From positions 1 to 40,707 of the forward strand of contig CAYHZT010000002.1 in assembly GCA_964361325.1 (NCBI GenBank): a DNA stretch of 40,707 bases, read 5' to 3'. A program made the position numbers and the translations under genes. Numbering within the stretch: position 1 is the first letter of the stretch; each line of letters opens with the position of its first letter. Below are positions 1 through 32,876 of this stretch, one piece after another. Below the pieces are notes generated by a model. It was not told where the DNA came from, ran no database searches, and saw only the letters and a list, made by a program, of their open reading frames with translations. This DNA comes from an uncultured Candidatus Saccharibacteria bacterium. GTDB taxonomy: Bacteria; Patescibacteriota; Minisyncoccia; UBA6257; WO2-44-18.

Positions 1-1174
1 AGTAATACTGCCGCAAAGTTTGCCAATAAGGCCGGAGCGCGCCGTCAAAACCGATTAACAATACCGGCTTGCCCAAAACGGCCGCATCAATGGCTAACGT
101 TGATGCAAATGCCACGACAACATCGCTGTGATACAACAAATCCGCCAAATGGGCATCTTCTTTAGGCGCTATGTCCGCTCCGGAAAAATGACGGCTATTA
201 GACGGCGTATCGATGGCGATTTTGCCGGGAATCGGTTTTATGTCGCCCAAATCCACCTTGCCCACTAAGTATGATCTTATTATCAACTGCGTATCATCTA
301 GCTTACTCAACTCTTTTATGACTTGCACGGATACGGGATTATGTTTCGCGTAAATATCGCTGGGCGGGGCAAAAAAAACGGTTTTCTTTTTGGGGTCAAG
401 GTTCATCCGTTTGAAAAATTCATCGCGGGGCGTTCTTAAGTCGGAAAGATAACGGTCGTAGTGAGGAATACCTGAAATAAAAATGTTTTCCGGATTAACA
501 TCGTTGTATTTAATTGCCTCTTCTTTAATTTTGGGCGTATGAACGATAAGTTTGTCGGGAATTATCCTGTTTAATCCGTGAGACGTTATGTTGTCCCAGG
601 AACGCACCATTCCGACAATAAAAATCCCAAAGTAACGAGCTTCGCGCATTACTTCAATATCGTGGTCATTAAAAACATCGGTGGCGAAAACTAAATCGGG
701 CTTGTATTTATCAAAACACTGCGCATATCGGTCTTTGGGCATCAATAGATAATCAAGGCGCCTTAATACAGAACGATAAACTCTCAAATTTCCCAATTTT
801 GCCAAAATCCAATGAATAAAAGTCTGAACATATCTGCCTTTTATTTTACGCTCCGCCAGTCGCATTACTCGCCATGAGTTGGTATCCGAAGAATGTAAAA
901 ATAACGAAAAAAACATCCTTTCCAGAAATGACCGCGAGGCGGTTTCCAGCTGGGTTCCTTCCGTGCTGAATCGGGTATTGACGAGTCGTAAACCCTCCAC
1001 AACGACATTGCCATTTTTGCCTCCAAAATACCGTTGTAAATCACCTTGTTTTTCAATAGGTGAAAGAATGACGATTCGCGCATCGGGCTGATTGGCTAAA
1101 ATTTCCAATATACTAGTTGAAAGAATGTTCCGAGCGCTTAATCCGGAAAAAGAAGTTATGAAAACGGTTCTCAT
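1..1174 (-). CDS. TagB/TagF-like (CDP-glycerol glycerophosphotransferase family) GT-B transferase; 3' end runs off the left edge; paralog of 8434..9780
   Basis: Absent from the ORF track because it has no stop inside the window. My translation from the ATG at 1174-1172 reads MRTVFITSFSGLSARNIL...MVRSWDNITSHGLNRIIPDK...GIPHYDRY...LADLLYHSDVVVAFASTLAIDAAVLGKPVLLIGFD, open down to position 2. It is roughly 45% identical by eye to the 8434..9801 protein and shares a 28-nt identical block (123-150 vs 8768-8795). The family call rests on the C-terminal GT-B pattern typical of Glyphos_transf proteins, without an HMM check. Confidence 0.6.
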   Translation of the reverse strand, partial: MRTVFITSFSGLSARNILSTSILEILANQPDARIVILSPIEKQGDLQRYFGGKNGNVVVEGLRLVNTRFSTEGTQLETASRSFLERMFFSLFLHSSDTNSWRVMRLAERKIKGRYVQTFIHWILAKLGNLRVYRSVLRRLDYLLMPKDRYAQCFDKYKPDLVFATDVFNDHDIEVMREARYFGIFIVGMVRSWDNITSHGLNRIIPDKLIVHTPKIKEEAIKYNDVNPENIFISGIPHYDRYLSDLRTPRDEFFKRMNLDPKKKTVFFAPPSDIYAKHNPVSVQVIKELSKLDDTQLIIRSYLVGKVDLGDIKPIPGKIAIDTPSNSRHFSGADIAPKEDAHLADLLYHSDVVVAFASTLAIDAAVLGKPVLLIGFDGALRPYWQTLRQYY

Positions 1175-11954: not shown

Positions 11955-13019
11955 CTATTTTAACGCCCCCACGAGTTTCTCTATAAGCGTGTTGAGGTCG
12001 TGGCGGCCCAAAACGTATTCTCGCAAACGCGCTCCCATTTGTTGCTTTTCTTGATTTGACATAGCCAAAGCGACGCCAAGTGCCCGGGCTAAATCTTTCG
12101 CGTCCTTTTCTTGAAACCGCAGCGGTTCGGGCAAAATATCGGCAACGGCCTTGTTAGACGCAACTACCAACATCTCGCAGGCCATCGCTTCTATAATTGT
12201 TTTATCAAATGAGCCAGTTGGTGTCATATTGACGCAAATTTCATGGCTATTATAAAGTTCCGACGCTTTATGATTAGGTACCGCGTTTCGGAAAACTATT
12301 TTGCCTTTTTTAACGAGCGGTTCGGCGCGCGTTTTTAAAGAGGCGGCGTAAGCAACTTCGCTGTCCTTGCTCGGTTCGCCGGCAATAGTTAGCCTAAAAT
12401 CAACGACTTGAGTATCCAGCATTAATGCGGCATCAATAAGCACTTCAATAAATTTAATCGGGGAAAGTCGGCCAAGATACAAGATTGACTTGGGAAGTTT
12501 TTGAATCGCCGGCAATTTGCGAAAAAGGTTGGCGTCAATGCCAACCGGCATTTGTTTCGCTTTTTTGAAACGAGCGGCGAACGCGAAAGGAGAAGTGTGT
12601 AAAACCTTATCGGCAAGCGCGATGGCAACGCGCGCTCGCAAACCGCCCATCGGGTGGTTATACCAGAAAAATATTTTTTTACCGAGTAGCTTCCATAATT
12701 TTGCCCCCAAAATCATATATTCCGGATTCATATGCACCAACACCCTATCGTAATCTTTTCTAAGACGCCAAATGTACTTTAAAAAATTAATTGCGTAAAT
12801 TAATTTTTTAATAATTTTCAATTTCCAATTTCGAATTTCTAATTTTTCTTTTCCTAGAGAATAGACACGGACATTGTCGGGTAATTCCACCCTGCCGCGA
12901 TAAAGACAAATTACCGAGATTTTCTCAACGCGTTTTGCCAGTTCCTCAATCCACCGATGATACACGCCGAGGATGTCATCATCTTTATCTATTTTTTGGG
13001 TAATGAATAGTAAACGCAT
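11955..13019 (-). CDS. GT4-family (GT-B) glycosyltransferase
   Basis: 354 aa. C-terminal GSFDKTIIEAMACEMLVVASN (E-x7-E type motif). Contains an in-frame heptamer tract. Confidence 0.8.
   Translation of the reverse strand: MRLLFITQKIDKDDDILGVYHRWIEELAKRVEKISVICLYRGRVELPDNVRVYSLGKEKLEIRNWKLKIIKKLIYAINFLKYIWRLRKDYDRVLVHMNPEYMILGAKLWKLLGKKIFFWYNHPMGGLRARVAIALADKVLHTSPFAFAARFKKAKQMPVGIDANLFRKLPAIQKLPKSILYLGRLSPIKFIEVLIDAALMLDTQVVDFRLTIAGEPSKDSEVAYAASLKTRAEPLVKKGKIVFRNAVPNHKASELYNSHEICVNMTPTGSFDKTIIEAMACEMLVVASNKAVADILPEPLRFQEKDAKDLARALGVALAMSNQEKQQMGARLREYVLGRHDLNTLIEKLVGALK
12815..12842. repeat. degenerate heptanucleotide tract (TTTTCAA TTTCCAA TTTCGAA TTTCTAA) inside a GT4 gene
   Basis: Read directly. 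Encodes KLEIRNWKLKI in frame. Confidence 0.85.
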
Positions 13020-13028
13020 CTAGAGATT

Positions 13029-13739
13029 TTATTGTTTATGCGGCTGTTCTAATTTTTTTAAAACATAATAAACCCAAGTTCCAAACCATTTATTTTCGGG
13101 GAGACACCTGCTAATTCTATGTAGCCCTGGCAAAGCAATAGCGGCATGCGCATACCCCTCTTCCTTTAAGTCAAAATATCGTAAAAAAGTTTTTTCAAAA
13201 ATACCGTGAGGGAAAACACTAATATGATTATTTGTTTCGTTCCACTTTGGGAAAAGACCGCGTTTTAAGAACACTAACCGGGAAACTATATGAAAAACGT
13301 TAGGCATAGAAACGAATAGTTGGCCGCCCGGTTTTAGTATTCGCCATATTTCACGCATGGCGTGATGAGGGTTTTCAAGATGCTCAAACACTTCCCATGC
13401 CGTTACGGCATCGAAACTCCCGCTTTTCCAGGGAAAGTTTTCTGAATTTCCATCAAATACCCGAAAATCATTTAAAACTGACCGTATATCACCTGCCATA
13501 AAATTACCAATATCGCAGCCATAAAGTTGTGTATATCCAATTGAGCTTAATTCCTTTAGAAACCCCCCGGACCCCGTTCCGAAATCTAAAATTTTTGAAT
13601 CTTTGTTTTTAAGACTACGACAAAATATATCCACGCACTTTCCTTTCAGGGGCAATGGCCTAACGCTGGCTTGCGCGGCAAATCCCTTTTTTATTGCGTT
13701 TGTTTTCGTCTTCATTTCTTCGGGTGTGTAATACTCCAT
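13029..13739 (-). CDS. class I SAM-dependent methyltransferase (paralog set A)
   Basis: 236 aa. Motifs ILDFGTGSGGF, FDAVTAWEVFEHLENP and NNHISVFP. N-terminus is MEYYTPEEMK. Confidence 0.85.
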   Translation of the reverse strand: MEYYTPEEMKTKTNAIKKGFAAQASVRPLPLKGKCVDIFCRSLKNKDSKILDFGTGSGGFLKELSSIGYTQLYGCDIGNFMAGDIRSVLNDFRVFDGNSENFPWKSGSFDAVTAWEVFEHLENPHHAMREIWRILKPGGQLFVSMPNVFHIVSRLVFLKRGLFPKWNETNNHISVFPHGIFEKTFLRYFDLKEEGYAHAAIALPGLHRISRCLPENKWFGTWVYYVLKKLEQPHKQ

Positions 13740-13790
13740 TTTTGAGATACTAACAATAAAAATAATTAACTACAATAATAATCTGCGTTT

Positions 13791-14927
13791 CTATTGCCAT
13801 GAGATTTTAATTCTATCCAAGTACTCCTGTTTGGTAGGCCAACTCTGGAAAAATTTTTCCTGTGTATTTATAACTTTTGCGCGCTGATCGGGGTTTTTTA
13901 TCATCTCCGCTATCGTATATGATAGCGCCTTACGATCTCCCACCGGTACGGTCTTCCCAATAGCCACGCCGACATCGGTCATAATTACGGGCAAGCCGGC
14001 GGTCGCCGCCTCAACCACTCCCATCCCATAACCCTCATAATTGGAAGTACTCAAAAATAAATCGGCCGTCTTATAATAAGAAATCAAATCGTCGGTCCAG
14101 CTCTCAATTCTAATACTATCCCCTAATTCATAATTCTTGATTCTTGATTCAAGATTTTCACGCTCCGGCCCATTCCCCACTATAAGCAATAAAGGGGCCA
14201 TGATTCCCGACCCCTGATTCTTAATTCTGGCGAAAGCCCCTATAGCCAAGTCAATGTTTTTCTCCTTCGTCAATCGTGAAGCCATCAAAATTATAAAATC
14301 GTGGTTGGGATATTTTTTATGTAAGTCATTTCTAACGGGTGCGTTTCGTATTTTTTCCACATCAACAAAAATCGGCAAAACAGTAATCCGTGATTCTTTA
14401 TTCTTTATTCTTGATTCGAGCGATTCTTTTATCCGCTCGGAAACGACGCGAAGACAATCGGCCTTTTTGATGAGCCGTTTTGCCAGCAGAACGCGAAGTT
14501 TGTTTTTCAATGATTCGCGCCAAAAATATGGACTTAAAAAATCGGTGTGGATTTGTATTTGGAGGGGGATTTTAAATTTTTTCTTAAGCCAATAACCGAC
14601 TAGGCCAGTTTCAAATGGATCCTGGGTAGTTATAATACAATTCTCAATTTTCAATTTTAAATTTTCGATTATGGATTTACAAATTTTATAGGCATCAAAA
14701 AAATAAAGTGGCTTAAATTTTGTGTTTGTCGGATAAGCAAAAACATTTTTGGCAATTTGTAATTTGGCGCTTGTTTGAAAATTGGAAATTGGAAATTGGA
14801 AATTTCGTCTTGTAAAGACAACTATATGCAGTTCATCAACAAGACTGCTATATTCCGCCATTCTCTGGCGCACTGCCGAGTTTTCTTCAAAAATCTTTCC
14901 GTCAACGGAAAGCATTAATACCTTCAT
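13791..14927 (-). CDS. GT4-family glycosyltransferase
   Basis: 378 aa. Motifs YEGYGMGVVEAATAGLPVIMTDVG and IVGNGPERENLE. Carries four separate heptamer tracts. Confidence 0.8.
   Translation of the reverse strand: MKVLMLSVDGKIFEENSAVRQRMAEYSSLVDELHIVVFTRRNFQFPISNFQTSAKLQIAKNVFAYPTNTKFKPLYFFDAYKICKSIIENLKLKIENCIITTQDPFETGLVGYWLKKKFKIPLQIQIHTDFLSPYFWRESLKNKLRVLLAKRLIKKADCLRVVSERIKESLESRIKNKESRITVLPIFVDVEKIRNAPVRNDLHKKYPNHDFIILMASRLTKEKNIDLAIGAFARIKNQGSGIMAPLLLIVGNGPERENLESRIKNYELGDSIRIESWTDDLISYYKTADLFLSTSNYEGYGMGVVEAATAGLPVIMTDVGVAIGKTVPVGDRKALSYTIAEMIKNPDQRAKVINTQEKFFQSWPTKQEYLDRIKISWQ
14124..14151. repeat. heptamer tract TAATTCA TAATTCT TGATTCT TGATTCA
   Basis: Read directly. Encodes ESRIKNYELG. 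Homologous position and sequence to 15949-15976. Confidence 0.85.
14391..14418. repeat. heptamer tract TGATTCT TTATTCT TTATTCT TGATTCG
   Basis: Read directly. Encodes ESRIKNKESRI. Confidence 0.85.
14641..14668. repeat. heptamer tract TTCTCAA TTTTCAA TTTTAAA TTTTCGA
   Basis: Read directly. Encodes IENLKLKIEN. Confidence 0.85.
14779..14804. repeat. perfect (AAATTGG)x3 plus partial unit; reverse complement of the TTTCCAA unit
   Basis: 14779-14799 is three exact units. Encodes FQFPISNFQ, which is the opposite-orientation reading of the 16111-16138 tract. Confidence 0.9.
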
Positions 14928-15571
14928 TGTCGTTTTTCCAGCACAAAAAAATAATGGTAAGGATTTAAAACCGGGCTTAATTCCTTAACAATCCTAAAAT
15001 TGTCGCTCAAGATTTTCCGCACTTTCCGTAATGAGTATTTAGAAGCGTCTATTTCCCAGTAATGCTGGCCGGAGACTTTAATACCGCCAAACTTCATGGG
15101 CAAGCGCAATAAAACGCTAAGAAATGGCTTTTTAAACAAAGTACGAACGCCCGGAAAGCGAAAAACAAATTCAAAAAACGTAGATTTATAAGGCACGGAG
15201 ATAATGACGTGGCGTGAAGCAACTCTTTGAAACTCCAAAAGGGCTTTGGGGAAATCTTCAAATGGTATGTGCTCCAAAACCTCAAAAGCGGTTACCACGT
15301 CAAAACTATTATTCTTAAGCGGCAAAGAACGGACATCGGCCACGACATCCGGAGCGAGATTTTTATCAAAATCGCAAGTGGTTACGTTGTATCCAAGCTT
15401 CTTAAGATAATCAGAAAAAAAACCGTTGCCCTTTCCCACTTCCAAAATCTTGAAATTGGCATCGTTAGCTCGCGCAACTTCTTGCGTCAAATCAGCCTGA
15501 TAGAAATACGAAATAAAGCGGTTTAGGCTGTCGTAATCCTTCTGAAAGTAATGCTCTTTATTAACCTGCAT
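14924..15571 (-). CDS. class I SAM-dependent methyltransferase (distinct from paralog set A)
   Basis: 215 aa. Motifs ILEVGKGNGFFSDYL and FDVVTAFEVLEHIP. 4-nt overlap with the downstream GT and 1-nt overlap with the upstream GT. Confidence 0.8.
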   Translation of the reverse strand: MQVNKEHYFQKDYDSLNRFISYFYQADLTQEVARANDANFKILEVGKGNGFFSDYLKKLGYNVTTCDFDKNLAPDVVADVRSLPLKNNSFDVVTAFEVLEHIPFEDFPKALLEFQRVASRHVIISVPYKSTFFEFVFRFPGVRTLFKKPFLSVLLRLPMKFGGIKVSGQHYWEIDASKYSLRKVRKILSDNFRIVKELSPVLNPYHYFFVLEKRQ

Positions 15572-17865
15572 TATTTTTGAATCGCATCTTGATTAATTAA
15601 GCTTACCAAGTTATCAACGGTTCGGTCTATTGAGAACTGTTGGGATTTTTCTTGAGCGTTTTTCACGATCATTTTCCGAAATTCATCATTCTCCGAAATT
15701 TTTTTGATTGCCGCCAAAATTTGTTGCCGATTATTCGGCTCAACTAAAATTCCCTCTTTACCGTCCTCAATAATTTCCGCCAAATTGCCAATATTGGTCG
15801 TGATTACCGGAACGCCGGCATTCATCGCTTCTACAACCTGGAAAGAAAAACTCTCAAAAGCTGTGTTTAGCACAAAGATTGATGATTTTTCTAAATATTC
15901 CAACAATTGCTCTCTAGGCAAAGAGCCAATCAATAAAACTCGTTCCCCTAATTCATAATTCTTAATTCGTAATTCAAGGCTCTCGCGCTCCGGCCCGTCG
16001 CCGACAATAATCAGCTTCCAATCCGGCAGATCTTTCATAACGTCAATCAAAACATCAAAACCCTTCCACGGAACCAATCTGCCAGCCGAAAGAATTGTTT
16101 TCGGCTGGAATTTCCAATTTCCAATTTCCAATTTCCAATTCTCTAGTGGAATACCGTTGTAGATAGCCTTAACTTTCTCCGGATTTTTAATCCAGCCGCC
16201 AACTAATTTCTGGAAGTATTTACTGGGAGTAATCACCAAATCGGCTTTTCCAACAACAAATCTTTGAATTTTCCGCAGTAATTCTATTCGCCAGCCGTAT
16301 TTCTTTTTCTGAAAATCATCAATCGTGTCCTTTACGCCGAATCTTTGAACGGATTGCTCCCAAGCATAATCACCAGCCACGCGAATAAAAAATTTCTTAC
16401 GACGCAGACGGGCCGCGATAAGCACGGGCAGGCCGACGCTTACCGGGTCTTGAGCGTACATAAAATCACAATCTTTAGTCATCCGCCAGCACTTCCACAA
16501 ATAAGACAGGTGGCGAATGATTTTTGGCTTGGTTCTAAATTTAGTGAACGGCAAAACGCTAACCATAAAGCCGCGTTTCGGCAGTTCTTGCTCCATCAAA
16601 ACGGTGTAGGTTGCCGGCCCGCCGATATCCGGAGGATATATACCGGTTGCGATCAAAATTTTCCCATGCCTACCGGCAGGCAGGAATTTTAAATTTTCAA
16701 TTTTCAATTTTTGGAAAATAGCGTCTATTTTTTTGGAAATATTGTCCCAGGAATAATTTTCTCTAACTAATTTTTGACCGTTTTGAGCTATTCGCAATCG
16801 TAATTTTTCGTCATTCGCTAAAACGCTGATTTTTTCCACTAAATCTTGCGGGTCATCAACTTTCGTGAAAAGACCCGTTTCGCCGTCTTTCAAAAAATCG
16901 GGAATACCCCCAACGGAAGTGCCGATTACAGGCAAGCCGGCCGCCATTGCTTCTAAAAATGAATTGCCCAATCCTTCGGAACGCGATGGGCGAACGAAAA
17001 TATCCGCTTGAGCAAGGTACGCGGGAATTTTTTCCGGCTCAATATGACCCAGAAATTCAATTTCATTTTCAACTCCCAAATCTTTAGCCAGTTTTTTCAA
17101 ATTTGCTTCCTCGGGACCGCTGCCAAGAATTTGAATTATGAATTGTGAATTGTGAATTAAGGGTTTTAATAGAGCAACGGCCTGAATCAGAGTATCTATT
17201 CCGTTTTTATGCACTAAACGAGAGGTGGTGATTATAACTTTTTCGTTTTTTGATTCATTCTTAATTCTTAATTCTTTATTCTTAATTCTCGTCAAGTCAA
17301 CGCCATTCGGCACCACTTCAATCGGACAGTTCGCTCCATGCCTCCGTGCGAACTCCGCCAAATAATTACTGATGGCCTGAATATGGTCCGCTTTTTTGAA
17401 AATCAAACGCCAGAGCGGATAAAAAATTCCGACCCGCTTTAAAATATGGCCCTCGGAATCGCCTTCTTGCAGGGTTAAAAGAAACGGCACGGACGGATGC
17501 CGTAATTTGAATAGCAGAGCAGCGATGCCGCTGTAGGCGGCCATAACCGCCCAAATCACCTCAAGAGGTTTTTCTTTATGCAACTTTTCCGCTTTCCACC
17601 AAACTCTGAAAACATAAAAAAATTTTTCCAAGAAACGTCCGTAATAATTTTTGGAACTGCTTCCTCGGCCGACCCGGAATATTTCGCAATTTCCCAATCG
17701 TTCATGGGATGGCCAAGATCGGTCAAACCGATTAGTTAAAATAAAAAAATCTTGCCCGGGAATCCGATCGCTTATTTCTTTAACCGCCACTTCCGCTCCC
17801 CCGATAAAAGGGGAGTAGGCAAGACTAAAAATAGCTATTCTTTGAATATCTTTAACGGGACTCAT
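15571..17865 (-). CDS. tandem GT4-GT4 two-module glycosyltransferase
   Basis: 764 aa. Module 1 ends ...NYSWDNISKKIDAIFQKL and has SEGLGNSFLEAMAAGLPVIGTSVGGIPD. Module 2 starts KILIATGIYPPDIGGPATY and has FESFSFQVVEAMNAGVPVITTNIGNLAE. The linker is repeat-derived (see 16667-16714). Confidence 0.85.
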   Translation of the reverse strand: MSPVKDIQRIAIFSLAYSPFIGGAEVAVKEISDRIPGQDFFILTNRFDRSWPSHERLGNCEIFRVGRGSSSKNYYGRFLEKFFYVFRVWWKAEKLHKEKPLEVIWAVMAAYSGIAALLFKLRHPSVPFLLTLQEGDSEGHILKRVGIFYPLWRLIFKKADHIQAISNYLAEFARRHGANCPIEVVPNGVDLTRIKNKELRIKNESKNEKVIITTSRLVHKNGIDTLIQAVALLKPLIHNSQFIIQILGSGPEEANLKKLAKDLGVENEIEFLGHIEPEKIPAYLAQADIFVRPSRSEGLGNSFLEAMAAGLPVIGTSVGGIPDFLKDGETGLFTKVDDPQDLVEKISVLANDEKLRLRIAQNGQKLVRENYSWDNISKKIDAIFQKLKIENLKFLPAGRHGKILIATGIYPPDIGGPATYTVLMEQELPKRGFMVSVLPFTKFRTKPKIIRHLSYLWKCWRMTKDCDFMYAQDPVSVGLPVLIAARLRRKKFFIRVAGDYAWEQSVQRFGVKDTIDDFQKKKYGWRIELLRKIQRFVVGKADLVITPSKYFQKLVGGWIKNPEKVKAIYNGIPLENWKLEIGNWKFQPKTILSAGRLVPWKGFDVLIDVMKDLPDWKLIIVGDGPERESLELRIKNYELGERVLLIGSLPREQLLEYLEKSSIFVLNTAFESFSFQVVEAMNAGVPVITTNIGNLAEIIEDGKEGILVEPNNRQQILAAIKKISENDEFRKMIVKNAQEKSQQFSIDRTVDNLVSLINQDAIQK
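15949..15976. repeat. heptamer tract (TAATTCN)x4
   Basis: TAATTCA TAATTCT TAATTCG TAATTCA. Encodes LELRIKNYELG. Confidence 0.9.
16082..16138. repeat. 10-bp-stem hairpin (CCAGCCGAAA / TTTCGGCTGG) immediately followed by perfect (TTTCCAA)x4
   Basis: Inverted repeat at 16082-16091 / 16099-16108. Four exact heptamers at 16111-16138. Encodes NWKLEIGNWKFQPKTILSAG. Confidence 0.9.
16667..16714. repeat. imperfect 16-bp GC palindrome (TGCCTACCGGCAGGCA) plus heptamer tract TTTTAAA TTTTCAA TTTTCAA TTTTTGG forming the inter-module linker
   Basis: Read directly. Encodes KLKIENLKFLPAGRHG, exactly between the two GT4 modules. Confidence 0.85.
17133..17160. repeat. heptamer tract GAATTAT GAATTGT GAATTGT GAATTAA (reverse orientation of the TTAATTC family)
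   Basis: Read directly. Encodes IHNSQFIIQ. Confidence 0.85.
17261..17288. repeat. heptamer tract TTAATTC TTAATTC TTTATTC TTAATTC
   Basis: Read directly. Encodes RIKNKELRIKN. Confidence 0.9.
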
Positions 17866-18946
17866 AAATCTTTTCCGTTTCTTGGACCATTCTTGAAAGC
17901 GTAAGTTTTTCGTTCAAGAATTGCTTCGCGACCACGGCAAACTTTTTTGCTTCTTCGGGATTCTCTAAATAATATTTGATAGCCCGGGCAATTTCTTCCG
18001 GCTCGCGAGGCGGCATTACCAATCCGCGATTTTGGACGATTTCGGTCATCCCCCCGATTCGGGTTACGACAAGCGGCACCTCGGCGGCCATAGCCTCCAG
18101 CATCGTGTAGGGAAGCCCTTCTTTAATGGAGGTCAAAAGAAAAATATCAAACGCCTTAAGATACGGCGCAGCCGGAGCCAGTTGTTCCACGATTAAGCAG
18201 CGGTTCTCCAAACTAAGTTTTTTAATTTTGGCTTTCAGTTTTGGCAGTTCGTAACCGGAACCGATAACAATAAAAAGCGCGTTGGGAAGCAACGCCGCCG
18301 CCTCCAAAAGAGTTTCGTAATCTTTTTCCGCTACAAGGCGACCGATAGAGCCGATCCAAGTTTTTTTATCGTCAATTTGCGCACAAGTTAATTTTCCCAA
18401 AATGCGGCGAGCCTCCATTTTCCCCATAAAATTAATAGGCGCGATGCCGTTATATATAGTTACTAATTTCTCTCTGGGGGCGATATTATACCGCACCGCC
18501 AATTGAAAATCATAATCGGAAACTGAAATTATAGAGTCTTGAAAACGAGCCGCTATCTTGTGAAGCAAAATATAAAAACGCTTCCGCAGCCAACTTAATT
18601 TATTGTCGGGATTAAAAACCCAGCCATGCGCGGTAAAAATCACTCGGGGCACTCCGGCAAGTTTTGCCGCGATTGAGCCGATGACTCCGGCCTTGGAACT
18701 ATTCAAATGCACAATGTCCGGCTTTTCGCGGCGAAAAATCAAAACAAACTCTATAAGAGCCAGAATATCGTTAATAAATAAAAAATGCGGGTGGATTGAA
18801 TTAGAGAGAAACCGGACGCCTTTTTCACCGCCAGTCAGTATACCGGCCTGAAATTTCAATGGGTCTAAACCTTCCGCCAATTCACGCACGTACTTTTGAG
18901 CGCCGCCAATGTCGTCTTTAGTAATTACAAAAAGAATCTTTTGCAT
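17852..18946 (-). CDS. GT4-family glycosyltransferase (first gene of the block)
   Basis: 364 aa. Motifs KEGLPYTMLEAMAAEVPLVVTRIGGMTE and N-terminal KILFVITKDDIGGAQ. 14-nt overlap with the next gene. Confidence 0.8.
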   Translation of the reverse strand: MQKILFVITKDDIGGAQKYVRELAEGLDPLKFQAGILTGGEKGVRFLSNSIHPHFLFINDILALIEFVLIFRREKPDIVHLNSSKAGVIGSIAAKLAGVPRVIFTAHGWVFNPDNKLSWLRKRFYILLHKIAARFQDSIISVSDYDFQLAVRYNIAPREKLVTIYNGIAPINFMGKMEARRILGKLTCAQIDDKKTWIGSIGRLVAEKDYETLLEAAALLPNALFIVIGSGYELPKLKAKIKKLSLENRCLIVEQLAPAAPYLKAFDIFLLTSIKEGLPYTMLEAMAAEVPLVVTRIGGMTEIVQNRGLVMPPREPEEIARAIKYYLENPEEAKKFAVVAKQFLNEKLTLSRMVQETEKIYESR

Positions 18947-18960
18947 GTTTCATGGTTCGA

Positions 18961-19035
18961 TGCGACTCACCATAAATAGTTCGGTGTGACTCGCTATAAA
19001 TAGTTCGGTGAGCTCACTATAGTATAGAACTCGGC
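18961..19035. repeat. 24-bp tandem direct repeat, two good copies plus one degenerate copy, just upstream of the glycan operon
   Basis: GCGACTCACCATAAATAGTTCGGT (18961-18984) and GTGACTCGCTATAAATAGTTCGGT (18985-19008) match at 21/24. They are followed by the related GAGCTCACTATAGTATAGAACTCGGCT. Confidence 0.85.
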
Positions 19036-28744: not shown

Positions 28745-30100
28745 TTAACGGTTTTTCAAGCACTTTTTAATGCTGGCAATCGCCGAGTCAATTTCTTTAT
28801 TCGTAGTCGGACGGCCAAAACTAAAACGCAAACTTCCCGAAGCGCGCGCCGGCGTAAAACCCAGCGCTTCCAATACATAAGACGCTTTATTCACTCTTGT
28901 GGCGCAAGCGGCGCCGGGTGAAACGGCCACTCCTCCAACTAAATCAAACTTAATCAGTAATTCTTGCGCCTTTCGTCCGGAAAAATAAATGTTGAGATTA
29001 TTCGGCAAGCGATTTCGCAACGATCCATTCAGCGCAACCGATTTTGAACCTAGAGTTTTTTGAAGCAACTGCCAAAAATAGTTTCGTAATTTTTCCATTC
29101 TGGCCGATTCGGACTTTCTCGCCTCGTCGGCAAGCTCTACCGCTTTGGCAAAACCGACAATATACGGAACGTTTTCCGTACCGGAGCGTAAGCCGTTTTC
29201 CTGATCGCCACCGGTCATAATTGGTTTAACTAATTGTAAATCCGAAATTCGAGTATCGAAATTCGAAACGTTTTTGAATTTTGAACTTTGAACTTGTTTC
29301 GGATTTCGTGCTTCGTGCTTTGAATTTCTCACATAGAGCGCGCCTATTCCCTTGGGGCCATAGATTTTGTGAGCCGAGAGCGTCATTAAATCAACGCCCA
29401 ATCCGCCAGGTGGCGGATTCACGTTACAATCCAAATACTGAAAGGCCTGGACGGCGTCGGTATGCAGAAGCGGATAAGCCGCTTCAAAATCCGAAATTCG
29501 AATATCGAAATTCGAAACTGTTTTTGATTTTGAATTTTGAATTTGTTTCGGATTTCGTGCTTCGTGCTTCGAATTTTTGAAATTGCGAATAATATTAGCG
29601 ATTTCCCGAATCGGTTGAATTGCGCCAATTTCATTATTCGCGTAAATAATAGAAACCAATATCGTCTGATCGTTTAACGCCGTTTTAAATTTTTTTAAGT
29701 CCATCAGTCCGTCTTTGGAAACGGGAATGTAAATAACCTCTACGCCATCTTTTTCCAGATCGCGGCAGGTTTCCAAAACCGATTCGTGTTCAATCGCGGT
29801 TGTTATGATCCTGGGTTTCTTAATTCTTAATTCCTGATTCATAATTCCCTTAACCGAGCCCCTCAAAGCGAGATTATTCGCCTCTGTAGCCGAACCGGTA
29901 AAAATAATCTCCCGATAATCGGCGCCAATAGAATGAGCAATTGTTTGGCGTGAAACAAAAACCGCCCTTGACGCCTCCTGGCCGAAACGATGAAGCGAAT
30001 TAGGGTTGGCAAAAATTTTAGTAAAATACGGCGACATTGCCGCCATTACTTTAGAATCAATCGGCGTTGAAGCGGCATAATCGAAATAAATAGGCTTCAT
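28745..30100 (-). CDS. cysteine desulfurase (NifS/IscS class) carrying three in-frame repeat insertions
   Basis: PLP-lysine context SAHKIYGPKG, plus GGDQENGLRSGTEN and the active-site loop SPGAACAT. At 451 aa it is about 60-70 aa longer than usual because of the repeat-encoded segments. Confidence 0.9.
   Translation of the reverse strand: MKPIYFDYAASTPIDSKVMAAMSPYFTKIFANPNSLHRFGQEASRAVFVSRQTIAHSIGADYREIIFTGSATEANNLALRGSVKGIMNQELRIKKPRIITTAIEHESVLETCRDLEKDGVEVIYIPVSKDGLMDLKKFKTALNDQTILVSIIYANNEIGAIQPIREIANIIRNFKNSKHEARNPKQIQNSKSKTVSNFDIRISDFEAAYPLLHTDAVQAFQYLDCNVNPPPGGLGVDLMTLSAHKIYGPKGIGALYVRNSKHEARNPKQVQSSKFKNVSNFDTRISDLQLVKPIMTGGDQENGLRSGTENVPYIVGFAKAVELADEARKSESARMEKLRNYFWQLLQKTLGSKSVALNGSLRNRLPNNLNIYFSGRKAQELLIKFDLVGGVAVSPGAACATRVNKASYVLEALGFTPARASGSLRFSFGRPTTNKEIDSAIASIKKCLKNR
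29238..29328. repeat. ~91-nt heptamer-periodic hairpin element, copy A, in-frame in the cysteine desulfurase
   Basis: AAATCCG AAATTCG AGTATCG AAATTCG ... TCGTGCT TCGTGCT TTGAATT. Internal 10-bp inverted repeat AAATCCGAAA (29238-29247) / TTTCGGATTT (29297-29306). About 92% identical to copy B by eye. Encodes RNSKHEARNPKQVQSSKFKNVSNFDTRISDL. Confidence 0.9.
29487..29577. repeat. ~91-nt heptamer-periodic hairpin element, copy B, in-frame in the cysteine desulfurase
   Basis: Same element 249 nt (83 codons) from copy A, in the same orientation and phase. Inverted repeat at 29487-29496 / 29546-29555. Encodes KNSKHEARNPKQIQNSKSKTVSNFDIRISDF. Confidence 0.9.
29819..29846. repeat. heptamer tract TTAATTC TTAATTC CTGATTC ATAATTC inside the cysteine desulfurase
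   Basis: Read directly. Encodes MNQELRIKK. Same family as the tracts in the GT4 genes. Confidence 0.85.
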
Positions 30101-31478: not shown

Positions 31479-32402
31479 TTATTTTACCAGATTTTTTGTG
31501 ATTTGTCGCAAGTGTTCGTTCAAAACCGATTCTTTTTTGGCTTCAATATTCAGACGAAGCAAATTTTCGGTATTGGAAGACCGTAAACTGAACCACCACT
31601 CGCCGGACGGCGAGTTAAATTCCATTTTAAGTCCGTCTAATTCCGAAATTGTTTTTGATTTCTTCGCGTAAAGGGATTTAATTTTCTTTAAAGCCGCCGT
31701 TTTATCTTTGATGGAAAAATTGATTTCACCTGATTGGAAATATTTCGGAAGCCGATCAATCCAAGCGGCAATATTCTCCGGCAACGCATTAATGAGATGG
31801 ATTGCGCCCAGAATTCCAGAATCCCAGTACGCCGATCCGCTTTTGGCCGAAAACCCTTTAAATTTAAAGTAGTAGTGTCCGGATTGTTCCGCTCCAAAGT
31901 CCGCTTGTTTTTCGGACATCAGTTTTTTGATGAAATAGTGTCCGACACGCGAATCTAAAGCTGATTTTTTGTCGGCAGCCAGCGCTTCACGAATTAAATA
32001 ACCCGATCGCGCGTCCAGTGTTACCGGACCTGAAAAATTTTTAGAAATCAGAACGGCCGCAACATCGGGGTTTATTTCCCGGCCTAAGTTATCCATAAAA
32101 AAAACACGGTCGCCATCGGCGTCCAAAATAACTCCCAAATCCGCGCGATGGCGTAAAACAGCCTCTTTTAATTCCCTCAAAGCGTCTTTGGCCATTGGAT
32201 TCGGCCCGTGAGCCGGAAAATTTCCGTCCGGTTTGCCGTTGATGATTATCAATTCTAGATTTTCCCTGGCCGGGCAGGCAATTTTCAATTTAGAAAGAAT
32301 TAATCCCGCTGTCCCGTTTGAGCAATCAAATACTACGCACAGTGGCCTTTTTGGTTTTAAGAATTTTTTCAAAAAATCCGCGTAAAGATTTATATAATCC
32401 AT
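31479..32402 (-). CDS. phosphomannomutase/phosphoglucomutase, C-terminal fragment (domains II-IV)
   Basis: 307 aa. Motifs FDCSNGTAG, DADGDR and GAEQSGHYYF. It starts inside the A6 run that ends the N-terminal fragment. Confidence 0.8.
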   Translation of the reverse strand: MDYINLYADFLKKFLKPKRPLCVVFDCSNGTAGLILSKLKIACPARENLELIIINGKPDGNFPAHGPNPMAKDALRELKEAVLRHRADLGVILDADGDRVFFMDNLGREINPDVAAVLISKNFSGPVTLDARSGYLIREALAADKKSALDSRVGHYFIKKLMSEKQADFGAEQSGHYYFKFKGFSAKSGSAYWDSGILGAIHLINALPENIAAWIDRLPKYFQSGEINFSIKDKTAALKKIKSLYAKKSKTISELDGLKMEFNSPSGEWWFSLRSSNTENLLRLNIEAKKESVLNEHLRQITKNLVK

Positions 32403-32788
32403 TTTTTAATTTCTTCCCCGCTGATGGGCGCCGCTTTTTTTCCGACAATTTTAAGACCGTTGAATTCTTTGGGATTATGAGAGGCGGTTACCATGATCCC
32501 GCCCACAGCTTTTAACTTGTTGACCAAAAAATAAAGCATCGGAGTGGTGGTAGGACCCACCACAATAATTTCTAATTTCGATCCGCCAGCTGGCGGACTA
32601 ATTTTCAATGATTGAAGGGCTGATTTGTAAAGCGCTGGTGAACTTAAACGGGCGTCGTGAGCAACGACAATCCTTCCCTTACCAAAATGTTTAGCTAGGA
32701 CTGCGATAATTTCTGACACCGCATTTTCATTTATTTCCTCGGGATATTTGCCGCGAATGTCGTAGGCTTTAAATATGGTGGGGTTCAT
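32390..32788 (-). CDS. phosphomannomutase/phosphoglucomutase, N-terminal fragment (domain I with catalytic Ser)
   Basis: MNPTIFKAYDIRGKYP start and the phosphoserine loop GGIMVTASHNPKEFNGLKI. The track start at 32797 adds MCG. Ends 13 nt after the start of the C-terminal fragment, in another frame. Confidence 0.8.
   Translation of the reverse strand: MNPTIFKAYDIRGKYPEEINENAVSEIIAVLAKHFGKGRIVVAHDARLSSPALYKSALQSLKISPPAGGSKLEIIVVGPTTTPMLYFLVNKLKAVGGIMVTASHNPKEFNGLKIVGKKAAPISGEEIKKWII
32567..32612. repeat. AT-rich heptamers flanking a perfect 16-bp palindrome (TCCGCCAGCTGGCGGA) inside PMM/PGM domain I
   Basis: AATTTCT AATTTCG at 32567-32580, palindrome at 32582-32597, then CTAATTTTCAATGAT. Encodes LKISPPAGGSKLEI. 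Confidence 0.85.
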
Positions 32789-32876
32789 CCCGCACATAAC
32801 AAAGAGTGCGTTATTAGCGCAATCCTTGCATAAATTTGCCTATGCCCGACGACCTGCTCTTTGTTATGTGCGGGAT
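32787..32876. promoter_or_regulatory. perfect 20-bp inverted repeat with a 50-nt spacer covering the PMM/PGM translation start
   Basis: ATCCCGCACATAACAAAGAG (32787-32806) and its exact reverse complement (32857-32876). In the minus-strand RNA the 3' arm ends in the AU of the PMM AUG. Confidence 0.7.

Follow-up and report, generated by a model that had tools for sequence, protein, structure and literature searches.

Can ten 7-base tandem repeats, read through as protein within three glycosyltransferase (GT) genes of a groundwater CPR bacterium, switch these genes on and off, or are they simply tolerated there? A sequence-only reading of the locus proposed that the tracts are contingency loci, and mentioned as an alternative that they are repeats tolerated in loops. 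Here, we examine the tracts themselves, their counterparts in related genomes and the known repeat systems that they resemble.

Heptanucleotide arrays of the window

All ten tracts are real. In the window, i.e., the whole stretch of 40,707 nucleotides that was analysed, they have the coordinates and units first given for them and lie within three minus-strand genes with Pfam GT4-type domains (A, B and C; Table 1), which belong to a nonulosonic-acid/glycan cluster. Each tract amounts to 3.6–4.9 copies, including four perfect TTTCCAA units at 16111–16138 (TRF: 16109–16140, 4.6 copies, 100% match) and three perfect AAATTGG units at 14779–14799. The repeat peptides quoted in the sequence-only reading are likewise correct on translation, with periods of 7 residues (NWKLEIG, ELRIKNY, KLKIENL), and so are its statements that a TTTCCAA array is open in all six frames and that a perfect TTAATTC array contains TAA on either strand. 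Period-7 runs of at least 21 nt number 13 in the window, against a mean of 0.21 and a maximum of 2 in 100 dinucleotide-preserving shuffles; the same criterion returns 0–1 runs at periods 4–6, and a first version of the scan gave 0–1 runs for the other periods across 4–12. Period 7 is thus the sole enriched period in the window.

The count of ten is nevertheless too low, as a fourth gene had been overlooked. It encodes an IscS/NifS-like cysteine desulfurase that carries ~32, 28 and 5 extra residues in an alignment with PDB structures. Two of the insertions are composite blocks of ~90 nt each, ~85% identical to one another at two non-homologous positions of the gene, while the third, a 31-nt array, adds merely 5 residues net, which implies that native sequence was partly overwritten by arrays. 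As for the RNA level, pairing in the mRNA of two oppositely oriented arrays (17133–17160 and 17261–17288) was considered and rejected (fold z-score −1.25, not significant), and the heptamer arrays form no significant hairpin in the fold test.

Table 1. Repeat-bearing genes of the window and the arrays found in them.
Feature	Coordinates	Strand	Peptide, residues	Domain or position
Gene A, GT4-type glycosyltransferase, 354 aa, 1 tract	11955..13019	-		Pfam Glycos_transf_1 / Glyco_trans_1_4
Array AATTTCC-type (+ strand), 4.7 units	12812..12847	-	EKLEIRNWKLKII, A aa 58-70	Insert at GT4 profile column ~58
Gene B, GT4 glycosyltransferase, 378 aa, 4 tracts	13791..14927	-		Pfam
Array TAATTCN/TGATTCT	14124..14156	-	NLESRIKNYEL, B aa 258-268	Helix after GNGPE, commonest hot spot
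Array ATTCTTT	14389..14418	-	LESRIKNKESR, B aa 170-180	Profile columns 156-165
Array CAATTTT	14637..14666	-	ENLKLKIENC, B aa 88-97	Profile column ~79
Array, opposite orientation (AAATTGG on + strand)	14774..14806	-	RNFQFPISNFQT, B aa 41-52	Net insertion of ~10 residues (30 nt) vs array-free orthologues
Gene C, two fused GT4 units, 764 aa, 5 tracts	15571..17865	-		Pfam, two stretches
Array TAATTCN	15947..15976	-	LELRIKNYELG, C aa 630-640	Surface helix H627-636 after GDGPE; length unchanged vs other GT4s
Perfect array (AATTTCC)4.6	16106..16143	-	ENWKLEIGNWKFQ, C aa 575-587	N-C domain linker, second GT unit; pLDDT ~70 (AF2)
Array AATTTTC	16684..16713	-	QKLKIENLKF, C aa 385-394	Linker joining the two GT units; pLDDT down to 45 (AF2)
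Array, opposite orientation (GAATTRT on + strand)	17130..17161	-	PLIHNSQFIIQI, C aa 235-246	Loop and beginning of strand E242-248 (AF2 model)
Array ATTCTTA	17253..17289	-	RIKNKELRIKNES, C aa 193-205	N-C domain linker, first GT unit; pLDDT 66-69 (AF2); unit whose in-frame reading would give TAA is changed
IscS/NifS-like cysteine desulfurase, 451 aa, three repeat-derived insertions	28745..30100	-		Pfam Aminotran_5
In-frame composite insert, copy 1: sub-arrays TCGAAAT-type, TTTGAAC, TTCGTGC	29238..29320	-		
In-frame composite insert, copy 2: three heptamer sub-arrays	29483..29571	-		
Array TTCTTAA	29817..29847	-	GIMNQELRIKK, aa 85-95	

Distribution among related genomes

The window was compared with 80 related Paceibacteria loci, all as consensus contigs. 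In 1.55 Mb of sequence, arrays of at least 3.5 copies number 77 at period 7, against at most 7 for any other period. Their distribution is strongly biased towards one protein family: GT4 ORFs hold 67 of 75 arrays, other ORFs one and intergenic regions seven. Counted by gene, arrays are borne by 34 of the 90 GT4 genes but by only 1 of the 274 other genes (OR 166). Arrays of ~4–5 units, built from many different units, recur across the related loci, with one to five internal arrays per array-bearing gene and lengths in GT genes of 21–35 nt (mostly ~27–34 nt) plus a single array of 45 nt. Heptamer arrays are shared clade-wide by some Paceibacteria (CPR) and do not set this genome apart, and our literature search found no description of such arrays in CPR/Patescibacteria.

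Several simple explanations of this distribution were rejected. The arrays are not GT-exclusive everywhere: an unbiased metagenome scan for the pattern (AATTNNN)4AATT detected true in-frame arrays in LeuRS, an IleRS-like gene, MurD, UvrC, TrmD and PurH, and 0 of its 32 long ORFs were GT4-like. Since these housekeeping genes lie on other metagenome contigs, the GT4 restriction is specific to the Paceibacteria clade sampled. Nor are GT genes a general sink for short repeats, GC-rich hairpins being merely 1.8-fold denser in GT ORFs than in others, and the intergenic arrays do not look like relics of broken GT genes, tblastn around them finding no GT similarity. Finally, the idea that the reading frame sets a copy number of n = 1 mod 3 had fitted both the 28–34 nt mode and the rare arrays of ~7 units, but arrays outside ORFs have the same 32–34 nt mode, which means that the frame does not explain the length of ~4–5 units; the idea is further weakened by one array that is a net 30-nt insertion.

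Location in the GT4 fold

When array midpoints are placed on the GT4 profile, 20 of the 56 arrays in GT genes fall in the helix that follows the GDGP motif (columns 236–250), 11 in the segment connecting the N and C domains and 4 in the one that joins the two fused GT units. At the helix, the main hot spot, the array takes the place of the native sequence and the length stays the same. In the AF2 model of gene C (mean pLDDT 88), four of the five tracts are in loops or linkers of lower confidence (pLDDT 45–75) and the fifth is in a surface helix. The arrays occupy permissive segments of the fold, i.e., the Rossmann-domain linker, the fused-unit linker, a few loops and the surface helix after GDGP, and the alternative of tolerated repeats, only mentioned in the sequence-only reading, is the one that comes nearer to the evidence.

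Search for on and off states

According to the contingency hypothesis, low-rate slipped-strand gain or loss of one heptamer would switch a surface-glycan GT off or on, with bet-hedging (e.g., against phages) as the proposed benefit in small-genome CPR cells with few regulators. Its premise holds: these are non-triplet simple sequence repeats (SSRs) in surface-glycan GT genes, the window tracts pass the threshold commonly applied in silico to nominate phase-variable loci (PhasomeIt, at least three repeats for 6–9-mers; PMC5953494), and a more than 100-fold restriction to GT4 genes is a signal of the type from which contingency loci are predicted. All comparative tests of switching nevertheless go against it. 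Across the GT genes of the window and the 80 related loci, no frameshift was found in any of the 56 arrays or of the 34 GT genes that carry them. Copy number in orthologues, the comparison that had been named beforehand as able to refute switching, is fixed near 4–5 units: the tracts are identical in nine strain variants of one orthologue, with no unit gained or lost, there are no ±7 residue variants in ten clusters of at least 90% identity, and 5 tracts are free of indels in two additional assemblies of the population to which the window belongs. Among the truncated members examined (the N-terminally truncated L083 and L084 being left out), three candidate OFF alleles were discarded: L082 is interrupted at the linker by a gap in the scaffold (N10), the short ORF of L066 is due to an in-frame stop elsewhere and L085 is an error-rich long-read contig. 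Altogether, alleles differing in unit number, with ON and OFF forms, were not found among the consensus contigs compared.

In neuO of E. coli K1 (phage CUS-3), a proven heptamer switch, an (AAGACTC)n array in the 5′ coding region is translated through, so that the reading frame is set by the unit number modulo 3; the number of repeats ranges from 3 to 53 and differs among strains as well as within them, and the OFF state is found in 65.6% of 64 genomes (PMC13001214). The arrays studied here resemble neuO in being heptanucleotide tandem repeats in the ORF of a surface-glycan-modifying enzyme, with a 7-residue periodic translation, but instead of a single 5′ array of widely variable copy number they form 1–5 tracts of ~4–5 units per gene at conserved internal structural positions, with no OFF or unit variants in the contigs compared. 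The contingency loci of Haemophilus, Neisseria and Campylobacter include tetranucleotide tracts in LOS glycosyltransferase genes and heptamers at hmw1A/2A (PMC2651432, PMC5953494, PMC8262952). They too are SSRs with a non-triplet unit, found mainly in genes for surface structures of bacteria with small genomes. Their tracts are long, strain-variable and often out of frame, whereas our arrays are short, constant in unit number and in frame without exception. On this evidence, we regard on/off switching by these arrays as unlikely.

Turnover of the units and replacement between strains

Down to 45% identity, orthologues carry heptamer-derived peptides at the same columns but built from different units (e.g., LELRIKNYEL, LKFKIENLKL, LQLLITNYQL and LKSQISNLKL at shared columns), many of the arrays being perfect. 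The unit thus changes between orthologues while each single array stays internally homogeneous, a combination that implies continuing slippage-type events and, in this respect, is in favour of contingency loci. The arrays stay as perfect as the frame permits. For 14 of the 56, the unit would yield a stop codon in one phase, and the arrays inspected for this (the window array at 17253–17289; AAATTTA in L004 and L011) deviate from their consensus at that phase.

Between strains, a tract segment of ~70 nt can be wholly swapped while its flanks are 100% identical in DNA. In one strain pair, the differing block spans from the N–C linker to the helix hot spot. Moreover, GC-rich palindromes enter the same sites as the arrays, twice in the middle of an array. 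The visible outcome is strain-level hypervariability of array segments, not on/off switching.

Possible origins of the arrays

As the same kind of repeat is found at the same positions in relatives, always in frame, the arrays look tolerated and self-renewing rather than switches. The explanation that we favour, although tentatively, is that they are in-frame microsatellites of heptamers that homogenise themselves, are tolerated where the GT4 fold is permissive and have perhaps spread within the family by gene conversion. Each array would be homogenised, and its unit turned over, by replication slippage with a bias towards heptamers, by conversion of short tracts or by both (concerted evolution), selection removing only frameshifts, in-frame stop codons and intolerable residues in an otherwise nearly neutral process. 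Spread between GT4 paralogues might make use of the conserved motifs bordering the hot spots; this would account for the near-absence of arrays in other families. In 5 of 6 genomes, the stretch comprising GDGPE and the array is the closest nucleotide match between paralogues (72–82%, versus 43–45% overall), and the array stretch of gene B at the helix shares 82% of its nucleotides with its counterpart in gene C, the two genes being 41% identical overall. The proposed conversion between paralogues is based on this local similarity, but the similarity includes a conserved motif, and paralogues do not share units at the helix hot spot significantly more often than in permutations (p = 0.55). Further objections apply to the explanation as a whole. 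Neutral tolerance alone does not predict a more than 100-fold restriction to one family, since the other proteins of the loci also have loops and linkers, and single-unit slips of a 7-nt repeat in an ORF would traverse frameshifted states, i.e., phase variation.

A related possibility, which we consider doubtful, combines propagation between GT4 paralogues by gene conversion with a function: the arrays would vary the surface-glycan enzymes of CPR bacteria, either as hypervariable cassettes or as contingency switches acting at a low rate. If true, it would be the first contingency-type mechanism described in the CPR radiation, and it would show in nature how a non-triplet repeat evolves in concert while the reading frame constrains it.

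Alternatively, the arrays could be selfish copy-and-paste mini-repeats, ready-made arrays or blocks being inserted at permissive coding sites and persisting as nearly harmless. This would fit the two composite blocks of the IscS/NifS-like gene, the net gain of ~10 residues at B aa 41–52, the ~70-nt replacement between identical flanks and the palindromes that target the same sites, as well as the presence of the same unit families, in either orientation, at sites of one genome that are not homologous, where units differing by at most one base make up 27% of within-locus pairs and 12% of pairs between loci (p ~0.05). Genome-specific unit families were rejected, the evidence for them being borderline at these positions and absent at the helix hot spot. 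Against selfish insertion, the arrays have no conserved flanks or termini, the main hot spot shows replacement of a helix without change in length, the 31-nt IscS array partly overwrites native sequence, the units are very diverse and no candidate mobilising enzyme was seen. Such an origin is improbable.

That the arrays are ~30 bp homology patches for shuffling GT4 domains or fused units among paralogues or strains, thereby diversifying glycans, would agree with hot spots in both kinds of domain linker, with the block differing in the strain pair, with a close relative in which the fused gene is split in two at the inter-unit linker (P0166/P0167) and with a contig that switches to unrelated sequence just past a linker tract (P0137; real or a misassembly), but it is very unlikely, as the commonest hot spot is within the C domain and not at a boundary, the strain pair has its right-hand breakpoint away from any shared array, recombination between tandem repeats would often be out of register and no crossover was found where two parents share an array.

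Comparison with known repeat systems

That heptamers are in excess among the SSRs of bacteria has been documented before (Mrazek, Guo & Shah 2007, as cited in PMC4692102), and a slippage bias tied to the polymerase footprint has been proposed for it (PMC4692102). Described cases include the cyanobacterial STRR, the GGGAATC-type repeats of Xanthomonas and Nostoc, and TAACTGA in Beggiatoa (PMC4692102, PMC4679880). Our arrays share with them the specific excess of period 7 over neighbouring periods. However, the described repeats mostly lie between genes, and a single unit dominates in each genome, unlike in the present arrays, which are coding, in frame, built from many units and restricted to fixed positions of the GT4 fold, most lying inside GT4 ORFs and not in intergenic regions as in the Xanthomonas and Nostoc type.

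Within coding sequence, there is a likeness to the Rickettsia palindromic elements, which Ogata and colleagues reportedly described in 2000 as in-frame selfish repeats in protein genes. These elements are dispersed copies of ~100–150 bp with a conserved palindromic sequence. In-frame repeats at permissive surface sites of otherwise conserved proteins are found here as well, judging from the AF2 model, the solved IscS and array-free orthologues, and the description fits the IscS composite inserts best. Single heptamer arrays, by contrast, lack a conserved sequence, conserved ends and a significant hairpin; sequence shared at unrelated sites is present for the two IscS blocks and absent for single arrays.

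Finally, the tandem repeats of Borg elements create disordered protein regions and, according to the abstract, are pervasive across the mobile element (PMC9879509). As described there, they are likewise perfect, fast-evolving tandem repeats in ORFs that add low-complexity segments; set against that abstract description, the arrays studied here have a 7-nt unit, are read in all three phases and are confined to GT4 genes.

Implications

The bacterial heptamer excess has been known since 2007 without explanation. Because the arrays are inside genes, selection on reading frame and stop codons exposes the dynamics of the repeats, which makes them a tractable system for the homogenisation of non-triplet repeats, for the question of why period 7 is favoured and for glycan variation by repeat instability in uncultured CPR bacteria. 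In practice, the rule by which a non-triplet SSR in a GT gene is taken as phase-variable would over-call these genomes, and heptamer arrays can break or gap metagenome assemblies.

Heptamer arrays in the window

The sequence-only reading had described ten heptanucleotide tandem tracts, whose positions and repeat units were confirmed in the sequence, as were three perfect AAATTGG units at 14779-14799, within the tract 14775-14804, and the perfect tract at 16111-16138, part of an (AATTTCC)4.6 array without mismatches (16109-16140); the peptides it quoted and its remarks on stop codons are also correct. All ten lie in three minus-strand glycosyltransferase (GT) genes, A, B and C, within a glycan cluster featuring NeuB, UDP-GlcNAc 2-epimerase, a cytidylyltransferase and a glycerophosphotransferase. 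Gene D, a fourth GT4 gene on this strand, and the two methyltransferase genes between the tract-bearing GT genes are devoid of heptamer arrays. Over the window, period-7 runs of at least 21 nt number 13, against a mean of 0.21 (maximum 2) in 100 dinucleotide-preserving shuffles, and the same criterion returns 0–1 runs for periods 4–6: period 7 is specific among the repeat runs of the window.

A fourth repeat-bearing gene, missed by that reading, encodes an IscS/NifS-like cysteine desulfurase. Its two composite inserts, located at separate positions of the gene, are 85% identical to each other, and, relative to solved IscS structures, its repeat-derived segments are three in-frame insertions (of about 5, 28 and 32 residues) that are missing in the solved homologues.

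The window originates from a Hainich groundwater metagenome and its closest relatives are Parcubacteria/Paceibacteria MAGs. Like the window's own run, assemblies ERZ1292623 and ERZ1292643 belong to the Hainich H51 0.1 µm samples. Two further features were observed. On the minus strand, the GT operon has a leader with three direct repeats of ~24 nt (18955-19021). They are flanked by a promoter-like site (19043-19016) and the gene D start codon (18946) and could be a regulatory element. The phosphoglucomutase/phosphomannomutase gene (31479-32797) consists of two overlapping ORFs, for domain I (32390-32797) and domains II–IV (31479-32402), which could be a genuine split or stem from a frameshift or sequencing error.

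Location of tract-bearing genes, arrays, palindromes and array hot spots (L-numbers are related loci or contigs)
Feature	Position	Strand	Remarks
Gene A	11955-13019	minus	Pfam GT4-type domains
Gene B	13791-14927	minus	Pfam GT4-type domains
Gene C	15571-17865	minus	Pfam GT4-type domains; two GT4 units fused
Gene D	17852-18946	minus	GT4
Methyltransferase genes	13029-13739, 14924-15571
IscS/NifS-like gene	28745-30100
Composite insert	29238-29320		~90 nt, three heptamer sub-arrays; IscS/NifS-like gene
Composite insert	29483-29571		~90 nt, three heptamer sub-arrays; IscS/NifS-like gene
Heptamer array	29817-29847		IscS/NifS-like gene
GC-rich palindromes	window ~16668-16685; L206 nt ~1875 of gene; L004 ~12778-12791
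Hot spots	GT4 profile columns ~42, ~79, ~103
Hot spot	GT4 profile columns 156-165
Hot spot	GT4 profile columns 177-197		linker after NGVD
Hot spot	GT4 profile columns 219-231
Hot spot	GT4 profile columns 236-250		helix after GDGP; 20/56 arrays
Hot spot			linker joining fused GT units
~32-nt AATT-core arrays	contigs L087, L088, L119, L121, L139, L157		housekeeping genes; groundwater and environmental

Distribution of the arrays

Gene C, a double GT4, has hundreds of orthologues. When 35 of them are aligned, the variable columns are the five tract positions, and orthologues down to 45% identity carry different heptamer-looking peptides at the corresponding sites (e.g., LELRIKNYEL, LKFKIENLKL, LQLLITNYQL and LESRIKNLEL after GDGPE). 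In one close relative, a member of the same cluster at ≥90% identity, the fused gene appears as two genes, broken at the inter-unit linker (proteins P0166/P0167 vs. P0052).

TRF (at least 3.5 copies and 80% match), run on 1.55 Mb from GTDB genomes that comprised 80 orthologous loci and their 10-kb flanks, found 77 period-7 arrays and no more than seven of any other single period; periods 6 and 9, whose arrays would leave the frame unchanged, stay within that limit too. Perfect arrays are frequent and units highly diverse (AATTACC, AAATCTC, AAACCCT, ACTACTC, ACCTCCG, AAGCGAC and others). GT4-like ORFs (412 kb) hold 67 of the 75 non-overlapping arrays, seven are intergenic, and the only one in non-GT4 ORFs (994 kb) is the IscS array of the window. 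Counted per gene in the 21 array-holding sources, arrays occur in 34/90 GT4 genes vs. 1/274 others (odds ratio 166, p = 2.5e-22). Orthologous arrays, although related, enter this count as if they were independent; even so, the contrast is too large for a sampling effect. The only long arrays seen are two adjacent perfect ones, (TGCTAGG)11.1 and (TAGGTAG)9.7, outside any ORF in an intergenic region of locus L033 (1336-1476).

A metagenome scan with the pattern (AATTNNN)4AATT yielded 94 matches, nearly all true heptamer arrays, mostly of 32–34 nt, in and outside ORFs. Some are in frame within housekeeping genes (LeuRS, an IleRS-like gene, MurD, UvrC, TrmD and PurH), and none of the 32 long ORFs among the matches is GT4-like. 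The array type is therefore general, its length mode is independent of reading frame, and GT4 restriction is a property of the Paceibacteria clade sampled. The heptamer-tract observation is both confirmed and extended. In the portions of the literature consulted, an excess of heptameric SSRs in bacteria is already recorded, unexplained and mostly intergenic (PMC4692102 citing Mrazek 2007; PMC4679880), whereas the arrays of this clade sit in GT4 ORFs (67/75); they are a new form of these known SSRs. Our literature search for such arrays in CPR returned nothing.

Place in the GT4 fold

Placed on a profile built from single-domain GT4s, the arrays concentrate at few hot spots. Gene C was modelled with AlphaFold2 at a mean pLDDT of 88; four of the five tracts fall in loops or linkers (block pLDDT 45–75) and the fifth forms the surface helix H627-636. 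Where the hot spot is the helix, the array takes the place of the usual helix at unchanged length, and one of its reading phases preserves the hydrophobic pattern (N-[YL]-[KE]-L-x-[IV]-x); loop arrays are net insertions, such as ~10 residues at aa 41-52 of B. The tracts therefore occupy permissive segments, as predicted by the alternative of the sequence-only reading, i.e., repeats tolerated in loops.

Comparative tests of phase variation

The main proposal of that reading, that the tracts may be phase-variation (contingency) loci, is only partly supported. The location in GT genes stands, and the tracts exceed the usual in-silico cut-off for phase-variable SSRs (≥3 units for 6–9-mers; PMC5953494), but the variation expected of such loci was not seen among the consensus sequences compared, and frame, copy-number and strain comparisons all speak against switching. 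None of the 56 GT-gene arrays is frameshifted: all lie in full-length ORFs with the stop codon at the expected distance. Array length is 21–35 nt (mode 27–34 nt), with one exception of 45 nt, and in 82 sequences grouped into ten clusters at ≥90% identity no full-length members differ by 7 residues. One orthologue is represented by nine distinct strain variants, all with identical tract segments; two further assemblies of the window's population show no indel in five tracts, and a third contig covers 78% of protein C, with 100% identity. In contrast, the proven heptamer switch neuO has between 3 and 53 units, and 65.6% of 64 genomes carry it in the OFF state (PMC13001214). Low-rate phase variation would fit the GT enrichment and the slippage that the arrays imply, but every comparative test opposes it, and we consider it unlikely.

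Several candidates were rejected: the short ORF of L066 as a switched-off allele (it is cut by an in-frame stop outside the array), the truncated long-contig members L082 and L085 as OFF alleles (scaffold gap and error-rich assembly, respectively), and intergenic arrays as parts of broken GT genes (no GT similarity around them by tblastn). Two more members, L083/L084, are truncated at the N-terminus.

Turnover and origin of the arrays

Single arrays are homogeneous inside and their units differ from orthologue to orthologue. Repeated without change, the consensus units of 14 of the 56 arrays would run into a stop codon in one phase out of three; in the arrays inspected for this (window 17253-17289; AAATTTA in L004 and L011), the consensus is broken at the stop-giving phase. 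Our favoured, tentative account is that the arrays are in-frame heptamer microsatellites, which slippage or short-tract conversion would keep homogeneous, under selection for an intact frame, freedom from stops and residues that the protein tolerates. Family restriction may result from spread between GT4 paralogues via the conserved motifs flanking the hot spots. At the nucleotide level, paralogues resemble each other most in a 20-codon GDGPE-plus-array segment (72–82% vs. 43–45% overall), which itself contains the conserved GDGPE motif; this holds in the window, L002, L003, L004 and L020, not in L011, and unit sharing among paralogues is not significant.

Between strains, change consists in the replacement of whole segments. 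In two gene C orthologues from different samples (L206 and L207), a linker segment of ~70 nt is entirely different between flanks with 100% DNA identity (~900 nt on one side, ~500 nt on the other), one allele being two GGAAATT units, the palindrome CCGCCAGCTGGCGG and two more GGAAATT units, the other a 17-nt repeat. Such replacement alleles, like the duplicated IscS composite blocks, would suit selfish mini-repeats spreading by copy-and-paste, but the arrays lack conserved ends and overwrite a helix without changing its length, which makes this origin rather improbable. That the arrays are recombination linkers serving module shuffling is very doubtful indeed. Three features go unexplained: the specificity for GT4 genes, a length fixed at ~4–5 units, and tract segments that are rewritten although their flanks stay identical.

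L206 and L207 also differ in a second block, which extends from the N-C linker as far as the helix following GDGP. GC-rich palindromes insert at the array sites as well, with an enrichment in GT genes of just 1.8-fold. CCTACCGGCAGGCAGG and CCGCCAGCTGGCGG are translated in frame into LPAGRHG, ARQLAD or ACLPVGK, and in orthologues such palindromes are inserted at these variable positions, in two cases interrupting a heptamer array midway. In a third strain (L082, ~3880), an N10 scaffold gap falls at the corresponding linker of the first GT unit (after NGV), and the contig encoding protein P0137 passes into unrelated sequence at a heptamer-tract linker, which suggests that these linkers break or chimerise metagenome assemblies.
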